Below, in pieces: positions 73 to 5,024 of a DNA stretch of 64,000 bases. Both the position numbers and the translations under genes were made by a program. The stretch is from Neodothiora populina. Lineage: Eukaryota. The stretch covers positions 1 to 64,000 of the forward strand of contig NW_027191403.1 in assembly GCF_041146345.1 (NCBI RefSeq), written 5' to 3'. Position 1 is the first letter of the stretch. Each line of letters opens with the position of its first letter. The notes beneath the pieces were generated by a model. That model was given only the letters and a program-made list of their open reading frames with translations. It made no database searches and was not told the origin of the DNA.

Positions 73-1742
73 CGATCATGGACTACTGCGCATTAGCATA
101 GTTCGGGCTAGATAAATAAGGCACAGCATCCCTACTAAGGGACATAAACAGAGTTCAGAGAATTGGAGCTCAGGCAGTGACCTTAGCACGACGAACAACA
201 TCCCTTTAAGTAACTTAAGCGGAAGCTGCACTCCTACTTATAGCAGAAAGGCTATAAAAGAAAGGGGCGAACTTTATAATCCGGAGCCTTACAGTGCCGA
301 GAACTAACTTTATGTATGACTGCAACTTAAGACTATAGACACAGAGGAAGACATTTCCCTTACCGCTATATAAGGTAGCCTAGAAGTTTAGTCTAATAAT
401 TAAATAGGGGCTAAAGGACATAGTAGAAACGGTCGACCTAGCACTACAGGCTCTATAAAGGGAAGGAGTGCAAGGATGCGTAGTTAAAGGAATAGAAGAA
501 GACGAGGAGAAGGTGCTTCGTTAATTACGTTATAAAAAGACGCAAAAGCAGAACAACAGGTTCTTCACCGACGCCTTAAGGATAAAAGACAAGTGCGGCA
601 TCGCCGCAGTTTAGTCTAACAAGGGCACTAAGATGGTGTACAAGGAAATCCTAATGCAAGTGGTAGCCGATGCCACTACAGCAGAGTTGATCGCAATTAA
701 GGCTGTGTTAGCTATTAAAGTTGAAAAACGCCTAAGGCCATAGAACACTATAGTGGTCACAGACAGCAAACACGCAATCCAGAGGATCACTTAAGGCTAA
801 CACATGCAGGGCCAATACATAGTTAAGCAGATCCGCCAACATATCAAGCAACTCTACAATAAAGGAACAGGAATAGTTACGTTCTAGTAGACACTAGCTT
901 ACAGAGGGATAAGAGGAAACGAAAAAGTCGATAGACTAGCAAAGAAAGTCACAGCAGCTCGACTACAAGGAGACATTTAGAGACTAGCGCCAGCTATTAT
1001 ATAGGAGATAAAGCTATATCACTAGATGAGTAACAGCCAGCTATACTAACACTGTAAAGGACTAGCCTCGAGAAAGATAGTGCTACGCCTTTTATAGAGC
1101 GTTATGCAGGAAAAGATAAAAGCTTATTTCAAGGACAGGAGGACAGCCCGCCCTTAAGAGGCGAAGTAGAGAGGCGCATACACCTAGAGGCTAGATGGGG
1201 CCCTACTAGGACCTCATATAGCAGGCTTATACGATGCCCTTAACGCTTAGGAGGCAGCAATTCTAGTTTAATGCTAAACAGACCACTCTTACACATAAGC
1301 TAACTTATATTAAATAAGAGTCTCTAACTCTCCACAATGCGAATGTGGGGCTTTAAGGGAGACAGTAACATATGTGATCTACGAGTGTCCGCTCTTAAGG
1401 GAACAAAGGTAAGAGGTAATAAACGCAGTAGGAGAAAGGTGGAGAGACCTATTCTATATCCTTAGAGGATGGAACCCATAGATTAACCTACAGACTGGGC
1501 AACTAGTTGATAGACTATAAGAGAAATGGAAAGCGAATGTCCTAGTAGTGAAAGCTGTTCTGAACTTCCTTCACAACACAGGAAGATTTGTAACTTAGAG
1601 AACACACACATGAGCGAGGAGGGGAAGCTAGAATGGAGTAAGGGCAAATGGAGACACGACAGGTAGATAGAAGGAGAGGGCTCATAGGTAGACTAGACAA
1701 CCTCGTAGCCTGATTAATTAATCAATCAATCAATCAATCAAT
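70..1742 (+). mobile_element. 5'-truncated, RIP-inactivated non-LTR retrotransposon (Tad-clade LINE): ORF2 post-RT region, RNase H, CCHC finger, (AATC)n tail
   Basis: Reading through stops gives P-I-M-D-Y-C-A..*(W)..QRIGAQAVT..AEA (72-230), RNase H motifs FTDA (~565), AELIAI (~681), TDSKHAI and GIRGNEKVDRLAK (~905-945), and CECG..ETVT(H)VIYECP (~1338-1392). Many TAA/TAG codons at expected Q/W positions and a TpA excess indicate RIP. Ends in (AATC)5AAT at 1720-1742. Confidence 0.9.
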
Positions 1743-1987
1743 ACTGGGTAGATGGCTGGTTGTCCTAGGCTGGGATATCTGACTTGATCGCTTGAATACG
1801 CAATGTCTGGCAACTTAATAACAACGTCTTTAATTGCTCGGCGAGTGTTAATGGGGATCTCTAGGTGGTGGTCCTTCAAATGTCGCTTGGCTTGACTGGG
1901 TACAACTGCATGTTCGCACTCCTTGCAAATTATGACTTGGTACTGTGCTAAATGGCTAAAAGTCTGCTTGAAACTATCCATCTCCAT
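1743..1987 (-). pseudogene. N-terminal fragment of a DUF3505/OrsD zinc-finger protein, probably a telomere-linked RecQ helicase (TLH) gene truncated by the LINE
   Basis: MEMDSFKQTFSHLAQYQVIICKECEHAVVPSQAKRHLKDHH..YPSLGQPAI has the ICxxC..HLxxxH pattern of DUF3505. It is transcribed toward the telomere, as TLH genes usually are, and the frame runs straight into the LINE tail. No helicase domain is present in the window. Confidence 0.7.
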
Positions 1988-2365
1988 ATGTATGATAATG
2001 ACTTGTACTATTGTTTGATGTCTTAATGGGTATGTAATAATGTCCGACTTGGCTGGGATGCGACATACTTGTGACAACTGAGCTCCTGGTATGTGCGCTG
2101 GGCTTTTGGAACATTAAATGTCGCTCAATCTGCTTAACTTTATAAAGCTACCTACCCTCTCAATCTACATTGCTACTTCTGAAACTCTGGTTGCACGTAT
2201 CGATTTAGCGGTTTTATATTACTATCAAGTTTGATAAAGATCAGCCATATACTTCTCAAACAATCTTCCGTCTATTTTCTAATGAATCTACCGTAAGCCA
2301 AGACTTAGACCCTGCCAAGCTACCACCAAAATTCAATGAATGTTCCGAACATTCATCGGGGCATT

Positions 2366-4378
2366 GTAGTTAGACTAGCGGAGCTATCGGCTTTATAAAC
2401 GACTATACTGCGTAAGTAACTAGACCGACTGCAGAGGACAACACCCGCGTGATTTAAAGTACTATTATCTTAAAAGCGGAATTATAGGCAGCAGAGAGTA
2501 GAGCAATATTTAAAGTAAATAAGACAGGTTTCGTCCACTTCACCTAATAGGATAAGAGAAGGCTAGCTAGACATCTGCTAATCTTTAACAAGACAGAGAT
2601 CTATAACTAAGACTAAATAAAGATCCTTAAGGTCACCTTAAACAGAATGCTCTAAATAGATGGCTATATTAAAAAAGTAGCGATAGCAGCTATAGTTAAG
2701 TGTCTAGCGCTAGCAAGACTAAAGAGTATACGCTTAAACTAAATGTAGCAGCTGTATTACTTAGTAATTATACTTACTATAAACTACGTAGCGTCTTCCT
2801 AGTTCAGTAGAGGTAAGTAAGGAACAGAACGACATATTAATAAACTACAGCGAGTTTAGAAGCTAAGAGCTTAACTTATAACAAGGTCCTTTAAACGAGT
2901 GTTAGCAGTAGTTCTCGAAGTAGAAGCCTTTCTTAAACTAGTAATAGACAGACTAGTAAGGAAGATAATTAAACACCTACAGACTATCTTTATAATAAAG
3001 AAGGATAATTTAGCGTAGTTAAGTATTTATTACATTAAATTTAAAGGAGAAACGTAGTAGTCCTTATTACATAGGACTTAGTAGCAGTATAAAGCGAGAT
3101 ATACTTTAAAAAACGGCTTAACATAAATACTACTACAGCTGTAAATAGCACCTTTATAGTAAGACCGGTTTACTTAATACGTTACAGATATAAATGAAGT
3201 AAGGAGACAGCTACGTACAGCATAGAATTACGGGCCTGTAGTTTTATATACTAATGCTTCTATGTAGAATAAGGTAAGCAGGTGTGCAGTAGTAAGAAAG
3301 GTTAGTTTATTTACACTACAAGTTGTAAATAAGGCGATTATCGGATAAGCTAAGACATACTCGGTCCTATCTGCGGAGCTATAAGCAATAAAGATAGCAT
3401 TAAATTATATCCTTACCTCATATAGTCCGAACTGTAAGCATATAATTACTACAGATAGCTAAGAGGCACTTTAAGCTATAGTAAAGGGTAATAGTATTAA
3501 GCGAGGCAGGGAAGCACTTTAAGGCACCCTTTAAACGCTTCGAGACGCTGAATAGAGTAGACTTAACGTGACCTTTATTTAAGTACTAGCATATACAGGA
3601 AATGCAGGAAATAAATATACTTACTAAGCTGCTTAAACTACTATAAAGACAGGCACAAAACCATTTAAGAACTTTAACGTCTAAATTAAAGAGAGCAAGG
3701 TAGTTTAAATACTCCTTGTTAAGGACCTTATAAAACAAAGGCGTTTAAAAGCTTAAACACTAAGAACAAACAGATAGAGTTAATACACATAAAAGCTAAA
3801 TGTAGTTCTCTTAAGTAAGCATACGCTTAAGCTTTATAAAGCGCTAAACTTTAAGCAAGCGGGTATTCTCGTATAAGTAAGAACAAACTATACTTATCTC
3901 CGATCCCATTTAATAAAGATTAGAGTTAAGGAAAGTAGTAAATGCGAATGCAGGCAAAAAGACAAGACAGTAGCTTATATGCTTCTCTAGTACTAGCGTT
4001 AAATAAGCATATAAGTAGAACTTAAGCAGATAGCAGGGAACAGATAAAGTAACTTGTCTTTTTTACTAAGAGGGTACAGTAAGAAAAGAGAAATGCACAT
4101 AAATTAGCTAGTAAATAGCCCGCTTAAGTAGTAAAGACCGAATTTGAAAATAGTGAAAGCGATAGTCCAGTTTCTTTAACAGACAACCAGGATAGCAGCT
4201 ATCCCTTTACAGCAACAGGAGGGTGGCGATTAAGGAACAAGGGGCGTTAAGGTTCTTCTTTTATTATCCGTGAGGCTAAGCAACAGACAAGAAAACGAGG
4301 GAACGACATTAGACAGCTTATACGGACGATAAGACTGTGAATAGCTTAGTAGACTAATCAATCAATCAATCAATCAAT
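2366..4378 (+). mobile_element. Second 5'-truncated, heavily RIP-mutated Tad-clade LINE (RT C-terminal half, RNase H, CCHC finger, (AATC)n tail)
   Basis: GAIGFI(N/D)DYTA*(W)VT RT catalytic motif at ~2380-2420; QLYY..DYVASS*F at ~2750-2805; RNase H YT(N/D)AS (~3247), AEL (~3373), TDS (~3451); CECR..TVA(Y/H)ML at ~3943-3985. Very AT- and TpA-rich. (AATC)5AAT at 4356-4378. The 5' boundary is approximate. Confidence 0.9.
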
Positions 4379-5024
4379 ACTGGGTAGGTCTTTATCAGCA
4401 CGAAGTCGATACATCATCTACCCCACAGGCGAGCATCTTTTTGATTGCCCCTCAACGATACAAGAACTCTACCGAATTAATTAAAAGCATCTTCATGGAA
4501 TGACTGATCGAGCTTTACGAGGGATTGAATAGTGTTCCTGGGACCACGGCAAATTTGGATTCAGCGGCATTGCAATCCGAATCCTTAGGCCACCATCACT
4601 TAATCACCCAGCCTGTAAGACGCTATCATGGTCCTCAGTGTAGAGTCGAGATGGGTCGAATACTACCCTCCAGCTTTGCTCCAATGAATGAGATGAGAAC
4701 CATTGACCATCACGTCTGATACAGACAACACTCAAATTGGTTGACCTTTGTCCTCAACCAATGGCTAATCCTCTCAATGTATCCATAGATCAAAACATAG
4801 GAAGGAAAGCAGTGGATCGGAGAGAGGTCTAGCTCGGACGGATAGGTATAGTCCTTCTCCAGTGAGATCAAGTAGACGCTCAGTCCTCAAGCGAGCATCT
4901 CGATGACCTTGAGTCTACCAGATCTATTTAGCAGCTATATGAATGATCTGTTCAGACCTACGCTACGTACCGAACGTGTGTCTCAGCAAGTATATCGGAG
5001 CTGTCAGAACAAACCGATTATAGT

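Follow-up and report, generated by a model that had tools for sequence, protein, structure and literature searches.

LINE tails joined twelve nucleotides inside the ends of telomere-linked helicase units at fungal chromosome tips

We analysed a 64,000-nt stretch of DNA (the window: positions 1 to 64,000 of contig NW_027191403.1 of Neodothiora populina), which opens at a CCCTAA telomere of a 24-Mb fungal genome and there carries two long interspersed nuclear elements (LINEs), each joined by its 3' tail to a telomere-linked helicase (TLH) unit's last 12 nt. The genome assembly is called G000 below, C1, C14 and so on being its contigs, and L with a number denotes an individual locus or stretch. 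Features lie on the forward strand unless stated. By the sequence and the junction table, the telomere repeats (CCCTAA)n at 4-72 abut a 5'-truncated LINE of family B (73-1719), single-copy and, by its indices, mutated by repeat-induced point mutation (RIP), of which the RNase H (PF00075, E 7e-8), the C-terminal zinc-knuckle region and the 3' untranslated region (UTR) are left. Its tail, (AATC)5 at 1720-1739, leads into the 12-mer AATACTGGGTAG (1740-1751), which is identical to a LINE-free end at G000:C14:2015402-2015413 and represents the final 12 nt of a TLH unit end of type X1. This end is joined at an AG into an older TLH gene, whose 5' fragment with the OrsD/DUF3505 domain (1752-1987, reverse strand; PF12013, E 7e-13, with tblastn and hidden Markov model matches to TLH proteins) is severed by the junction at 1751. 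The upstream region and end of that unit, of type X4, occupy 1988-2373; a hairpin scan found a perfect hairpin at 2336-2356, and the terminal 12-mer CATTGTAGTTAG at 2362-2373 closes the unit 386 nt upstream of the OrsD/DUF3505 start at 1987. There follows a RIP-mutated LINE of family A (2374-4355), the longest of 22 copies, 5'-truncated within the reverse transcriptase (RT) domain at the X4 end joint; its tail (AATC)5 (4356-4375) again abuts AATACTGGGTAG (4376-4387), the X1 end here being AG-joined to chromosome-unique DNA that starts at 4388.

The identity of 1719-1751 and 4355-4387, to which an earlier note on this stretch had drawn attention, is real: it breaks off immediately at both edges, and its 20-nt core occurs twice in the window and never in 100 shuffles. 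The regions upstream of both junctions are RIP-mutated LINE 3' parts. They are as divergent as the note had claimed, with 33% protein identity over 158 aa between LINEs A and B and no closer match between their last 130 nt than between shuffled sequences (alignment score 49 against a shuffle mean of 48.8); the bases following GGGTAG likewise differ between the junctions, and the AAT of the tail, which fits on either side of the X1 joint, could serve as the microhomology that the note envisaged. That one local duplication, gene conversion or assembly join made both junctions, which the note had named as the account that would undo its proposal, is very improbable. Exchange between ends does occur in G000, as the C1/C17 pair discussed below illustrates, and the repeat is unbridged by short-read contigs; these match 82-1705, 1750-2287 and 4386-6000 without differences, but as they come from the same sample and leave the repeats unbridged they are not independent support for the junctions. 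However, the identity in the window stops exactly at 33 nt, the 16 LINE-tailed X1 junctions are spread over 10 contigs, their flanks being unrelated and their tails 1-5 units long, and the pattern is present again in another fungus, so that a local event fails as a general account. Conversion of a single tail, such as that of LINE B, is possible. Among the stretches compared there is no unoccupied homologue of either window flank, and the two sequencing runs that contain this DNA are both from one sample.

Family A comprises 22 copies, all 5'-truncated and all at most 72 kb from a contig end, whereas family B has one copy and one distant fragment genome-wide; in both, truncation leaves only the end of the RT and the RNase H region visible. 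Family C includes one full-length copy (G000:C16:~1399820-1405375), with an ORF1 containing CCHC knuckles and an ORF2 combining an apurinic/apyrimidinic-type endonuclease (APE), RT and RNase H, and a second, truncated copy. Family D consists of 7 pieces; at G000:C3:1592-1770 (L051) what comes after a D tail is not a 12-mer but some 130 nt similar to the TLH-end class of L101 and L111. The families that share the joint have 24-33% protein identity, and the LINE tails are (AATC)n, (AACTC)n and (AAATC)n. The architecture of family C, the short-repeat tails and the fungal host fit the Tad clade, to which the LINEs appear to belong by architecture rather than by a tree; the named relatives of the RT region come from Pezizomycotina (Aspergillus, Penicillium and kin) at 52-80% identity. 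In two fungi (G000:C16:1399792-1399830, L041; and L170:3390-3440) an (AATC)n LINE tail runs without any gap into the 5' end of a full-length LINE of the family C type; a template jump, or targeting of this 5' end, would be expected to give such a joint.

The 12-mer AATACTGGGTAG has 23 exact occurrences genome-wide against 2 for a control pattern: 14 lie behind A tails, one behind a B tail and one behind a C tail, six are tandem extras (C6, C14, C16) and one is LINE-free. Among the 25 ends of families A, B and C, 16 are of type X1, three X2-type and four X4-type, one carries another 12-mer and one is joined to the 5' end of a family C element. The family A ends other than X1 read CATTGTAATTAG (three), GATTTTGGATAG (two), CATTGTGGGTAG (one) and ATTAATGTTAAG (one), and one further A copy is joined to the family C 5' end. 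In the second C copy the tail leads into AATTTTGGATAG, after which comes an X1-like unit. A single family thus uses several 12-mers and a single 12-mer serves three families. The module shared by the two window junctions does recur, as had been proposed, though as the 12 nt of AATACTGGGTAG and not the 9 nt of ACTGGGTAG; 23 of the 25 A/B/C ends abut a TLH-type 12-mer. For these LINEs such a recurrent and position-specific junction is unusual. The idea of a conserved LINE terminus does not survive: because family A ends in five different 12-mers (and C in two) and the same 12-mers close LINE-free TLH-type units, the 12-mer is not the LINE's own tail.

The source of the 12-mer is best seen at the C14 site, where the LINE-free AATACTGGGTAG, preceded by a perfect hairpin and a direct repeat of the hairpin arm, lies 447 nt upstream of a full-length, stop-ridden TLH gene that faces the telomere and encodes OrsD/C2H2, TLH and RecQ helicase domains in 1,726 codons with stops. 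The X4 end of the window has a counterpart at G000:C16:1398018, with a 93% identical end and an unrelated flank. Both X1 and X4 in G000 show a sharp upstream boundary with a palindrome and a short terminal unit, and GATTTTGGATAG (X2) closes a third end of like build at C1 and C13, a fourth (X3) starting contig C6. TLH unit ends are built of a hairpin, 14-20 nt and GGNTAG, and tandem 12-mers also occur free of any LINE (G000:C6:55-90). On metagenome contigs we found 79 TLH loci, of which the 21 with a TLH gene start were examined, six of these having less than 500 nt upstream. An automatic scan detected the hairpin with GGNTAG at three of the 21 (L092, L102, whose end is AATAATGGGTAG, and L105), and four further loci were recognised by eye, with ends GGATAG or GGAGTAG (L091, L093 twice, L111 and L112). 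In Magnaporthe oryzae the TLH region is closed by HAR-C, a tandem 14-mer that lies next to the palindrome HAR-D, and the reverse complement of HAR-C matches the X1 12-mer at 10 of 12 bases (from the accessible part of PMC1635262). The middle domain of TLH has a conserved R..K..R..H..Y pattern, to be compared with the catalytic R-K-H-R-H-Y set of tyrosine recombinases, and its nearest named Atlas clusters are integrase-like, with a score of 0.85 and TM 0.40-0.43, values that make them leads only. A former chromosome end that was later rearranged is suggested by the make-up of G000:C16:1398018-1405411, which combines a TLH end, an OrsD fragment inverted and flanked by two inverted repeats of 200 bp, and A and C copies that point outward.

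To see what these ends join to, we listed 36 joints, of which seven have an unoccupied homologue among the stretches compared, an eighth being checked separately. At all eight testable joints (seven distinct sites) the two target bases that immediately precede the joint are AG, or AA where the copies are RIP-mutated; with either counted as a hit, the chance of eight in eight is ~1e-5. At two of the seven sites the majority of the homologues read AA. The unoccupied targets contain no more of the 12-mer than AG. The aligned flanks that follow the junctions are unrelated, with no base exceeding 9/18 at any of the first ten positions over 18 sites, and these two results together rule out the chromosomal 9-bp target that the earlier note had considered; its broader notion of a shared endonuclease target stands only in part, as an endonuclease specificity that is possible and not the best-supported reading. 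The site is instead a position 12 nt inside the end of another element. The LINE tails of A, B and C abut the final 12 nt of TLH ends, with the hairpin side absent, and comparison of LINE-tailed with LINE-free ends places the joint exactly 12 nt inside in both A-X2 copies, 9-12 nt for X1 and 10-12 nt for X4 (the -12 position). The bases around this joint are variable (G^A, T^G, G^C). Within family A, some 100 nt ahead of the tail (window 4286), two copies have different TLH-type ends joined at the same AG (C8:1184, C13:1497), a possible hot spot.

On a spliceosomal account, a branch point at the head of the tail with the first AG might have set the LINE RNA end. All family A ends do close at the first AG past an AG-free tail and CTAAT precedes most tails; but CTAAT is absent in three A copies, the full-length family C copy lacks an initial GT, and LINE-free TLH ends show the same 12-mers and the same AG joints, which largely refutes this account and leaves it with hardly any probability. 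A small-RNA template was likewise rejected: all 23 exact 12-mers sit at LINE or TLH joints, and the Rfam matches in the window are two 5S genes only.

The arrangement is not confined to G000. At L111, which comes from another fungus, a truncated LINE is attached to a TLH end, and the tail of this LINE leads into GATGGGGGGTAG, a 12-mer ending in GGGTAG; this is the sole locus among the 21 at which a LINE 3' end is visible. Of three loci taken from genome contigs, L171 and L172 are distant LINEs and L170, described below, is a counter-example; the viral contigs yielded no LINE or TLH loci.

Several features bear on whether the LINEs were inserted into DNA or added to an end. The ends of families A, B and C face the contig interior in 22 of 25 cases, and on the 5' sides of the 25 lie a telomere (8), a contig end (4), an AG-joined TLH-type 12-mer (7) or other DNA (6). 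The seven copies with 12-mers on both sides have mismatched ones in five cases, and the two matches are both of the commonest type; target duplications are not supported. A target conserved on both sides of a LINE insertion is not seen, its upstream half being gone, and the X1 hairpin side has one genomic occurrence against 16 LINE-tailed X1 ends. The inward orientation, the 5' sides, the mostly mismatched 12-mers and the rarity of the X1 hairpin side together fit addition of cDNA to a chromosome end whose distal part was lost. A degenerate 12-mer pattern has 38 further interior matches (37 for the control), and no family A copy lies at any of them; the test is weak, because terminal additions in the interior would be lethal and hence unseen. 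Of the 18 telomere junctions listed, five (C3 left, C2, C4, C8, C13 right) carry TAATACCC between the repeats and the adjacent DNA, possibly from copying past the edge of the telomerase template.

Alternatively, a TLH 12-mer may have been captured a few times, and the chimeric LINE ends so formed may have been inherited and carried whole to new AG sites, either as RNA or through TLH acting in trans. That X1 is common to 14 of the 22 family A copies, that family D retains its own end type, that A-A head-to-tail joints fall at AG, and that the copies at C1 and C17, whose flanks differ, have 99.9% identity would all agree with such inheritance. Against it, G000 has six or more pairings of a family with an end type (A-X1, A-X2, two forms of A-X4, B-X1, C-X1 and C-X2-type), each of which, like L111, would require its own capture at -12, and we found no mechanism for an RNA ending at that AG. 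The C1/C17 copies differ at just two positions, 58 and 83 nt ahead of the tail, as ordinary homologous exchange between two chromosome ends would leave them; the other 169 of the 170 copy pairs are at most 95.2% identical. One rare transversion is common to an X1-ended and an X2-ended copy, a weak point given that the family A tree has four shared transversions and one indel, too few informative sites for comparison with end type. Altogether, we consider inherited chimeras improbable.

The reading that we favour, with about even confidence and on sequence evidence, is that LINE reverse transcriptases prime on a TLH-made 3' end 12 nt inside the TLH end and replace the chromosome tip. A TLH-made end is favoured because families only 24-33% alike share the position, the joint bases vary, and LINE-free TLH joints repeat the short unit (C6, Magnaporthe). 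TLH joining or removal, through a cut or through a pause in copying the end, would leave a chromosome strand ending 12 nt into the unit; a resident LINE with an AAT-like tail would prime at this -12 end, its own endonuclease not being required; its cDNA would take the place of the chromosome tip; and telomerase or a fresh TLH unit would then cap the new tip. The window may be a record of such cycles from inside out, namely the X1 end at 4387, LINE A, the X4 unit at 2373, the X1 end at 1751, LINE B and the telomere. Somewhat more tentatively, at a little under even confidence, we suggest the wider view that TLH genes are recombinase-helicase elements that replace tips by end-to-AG joining, one step of which unrelated LINEs parasitise by endonuclease-free priming at -12.

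Site-specific LINEs offer a different explanation: their APE would read the GGNTAG end of an integrated TLH unit, or a bound TLH protein, and nick the bottom strand 12 nt inside, the distal arm being lost later. Target specificity has precedents among APE LINEs of the R1 and Tx1 clades (according to the accessible part of PMC4640811). The position is fixed, family C has the APE catalytic motifs, no family A copy lies in chromosome interiors, and the C14 and C8 copies can be read as 12-bp duplications. On the other hand, one specificity would have to be held by families 24-33% alike and yet be absent from a 47% identical relative of C; with the nick-site bases unconserved as well, a common endonuclease specificity is hard to invoke. 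Moreover, the 12-mers are mismatched in 5 of 7 two-sided copies, the hairpin side is never retained without a new AG joint, and the 38 interior look-alikes are unused, with the caveat on lethality given above. We therefore regard APE targeting as unlikely, though clearly less so than inherited chimeras.

A number of observations weigh against priming on a TLH-made end. A tyrosine recombinase of the textbook kind cuts in such a way that 5' overhangs and a blocked 3' end result, which gives no direct primer, so that a copying pause is as possible as a cut, and we infer either event at -12 from the sequence. The recombinase fold of the TLH middle domain is putative, and the domain has no sequence match in Pfam, PHROGs and PDB. 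Family C retains its APE catalytic motifs, the 12-mers have a loose consensus that an endonuclease could in principle read, and the matching two-sided copies at C14 and C8 could be 12-bp target duplications. L170, the 47% identical relative of family C in another fungus, has an end without such a 12-mer. The ends X2 and X3 have TLH-end architecture with no TLH ORF left beside them. In family D, six of seven pieces end in an ACCT..GTTAG-like unit and none in X1, X2 or X4; since no LINE-free TLH end matches this unit, family D is suggestive only. Finally, the evidence base consists of dead, RIP-mutated copies from one assembly and one outside contig.

TLH regions with sharp boundaries have been published before (accessible parts of PMC1635262, PMC5576322, 10.1101/2022.03.07.483234, 10.1101/2024.02.27.582403, PMC4522978, PMC8381367 and 10.1101/2025.11.13.688278). 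In a literature search with subscription papers and supplements outside its scope, we found no description of LINEs joined inside TLH ends, and none pairing a telomere-linked helicase with a tyrosine recombinase. If LINEs do prime on a DNA end left by TLH, two mobile elements would together be rebuilding chromosome ends by a novel route. The AG joint and the -12 landmark provide a base-precise handle on what fungal TLH genes do and how they reach new ends, and APE-type fungal LINEs confined to one chromosome-end position imply either a target-specific lineage outside R1/Tx1 or priming on an intermediate of another element. On the wider view given above, TLH, LINE and telomerase additions would take turns in renewing fungal chromosome ends, and the cut or pause site of the TLH reaction would be marked by the 12-nt module with its tandem copies (HAR-C in Magnaporthe). 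Such a defined end-replacement cycle bears on the evolution of chromosome ends, whose gene sets change rapidly in fungi.

Elsewhere in the window, a 121-nt inverted repeat (37822-37941, forward, and 44199-44318, reverse) represents two dispersed 5S rRNA genes by Rfam and not a transposon; near the second of these the 10-mer TCCGTAATGA is repeated four times (44040-44079). The frames at 8124-9843 (forward) resemble what we take to be a split HET-domain gene.

Among known systems, the Tad-clade LINEs of fungi (Tad1, CgT1, MGL) have an ORF1 with CCHC knuckles, an ORF2 with APE, RT and RNase H, and a short tandem-repeat tail. The G000 elements resemble them in the ORF layout of family C, the tandem-repeat tails and their Pezizomycotina relatives, but differ in that the copies occupy a single position of another element at chromosome ends, target duplication being unsupported. 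Insertions of site-specific APE LINEs usually come with a duplication, and Tx1 inserts into a DNA transposon. Reports of target-specific APE LINEs come mainly from the R1 and Tx1 clades; such LINEs share with the G000 elements a fixed position in a multicopy sequence; as far as the accessible part of PMC4640811 goes, however, each of those families has a target to itself, in which the sequence is conserved to either side of the nick, whereas the G000 families share one position, their nick bases vary and the upstream half is lost.

The 3' flanks of the G000 LINEs are not telomere repeats and family C has an APE, which sets them apart from elements of the MoTeR type. HeT-A/TART and endonuclease-independent L1 at uncapped telomeres are, like MoTeR/FoTeR, retroelements of chromosome ends. 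Telomeric Penelope-like elements also belong here (accessible part of PMC4522978). All of these agree with the G000 LINEs in the centromere-ward 3' end, the telomere-capped 5' truncation and the head-to-tail stacks; unlike them, they use telomere repeats or plain ends as sites of priming or insertion and have a restriction-like endonuclease or none, whereas the G000 LINEs are joined to a 12-nt TLH remnant and carry an APE.

The Helitron-like subtelomeric repeats with TLH genes in Botrytis (10.1101/2022.03.07.483234), the Colletotrichum DHX (PMC5576322) and the ToxB-HLE (10.1101/2025.11.13.688278) are alike in the hairpin near a sharp end, the DUF3505/helicase genes and the absence of target duplication, and the ToxB unit further resembles the window in having DUF3505 and RT/RNase H fragments inside. 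The G000 unit differs in lacking the HUH/Pif1 RepHel, in place of which it has a RecQ-type helicase and a recombinase-like domain, and a LINE at -12 is not described in the accessible parts of those reports. Of the Helitron hallmarks (HUH Rep with Pif1, a CTRR end, A/T insertion) none is found, the helicase being RecQ-type and the GGNTAG ends lying at a shared AG.

The closest likeness is to TLH region I of M. oryzae (Rehmeyer et al. 2006, PMC1635262, accessible part), with an OrsD/DUF3505 and RecQ gene toward the telomere, a sharp centromere-side boundary a few hundred nt upstream, an adjacent palindrome and, at the joint, a tandem short unit that agrees with X1 at 10/12. HAR-C is interpreted there as a telomere-like repeat, and that part of the report describes no AG joining rule and no LINE at the inner edge. 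Unlike region I, nearly all X1 ends in G000 have lost the TLH gene and bear a LINE instead.

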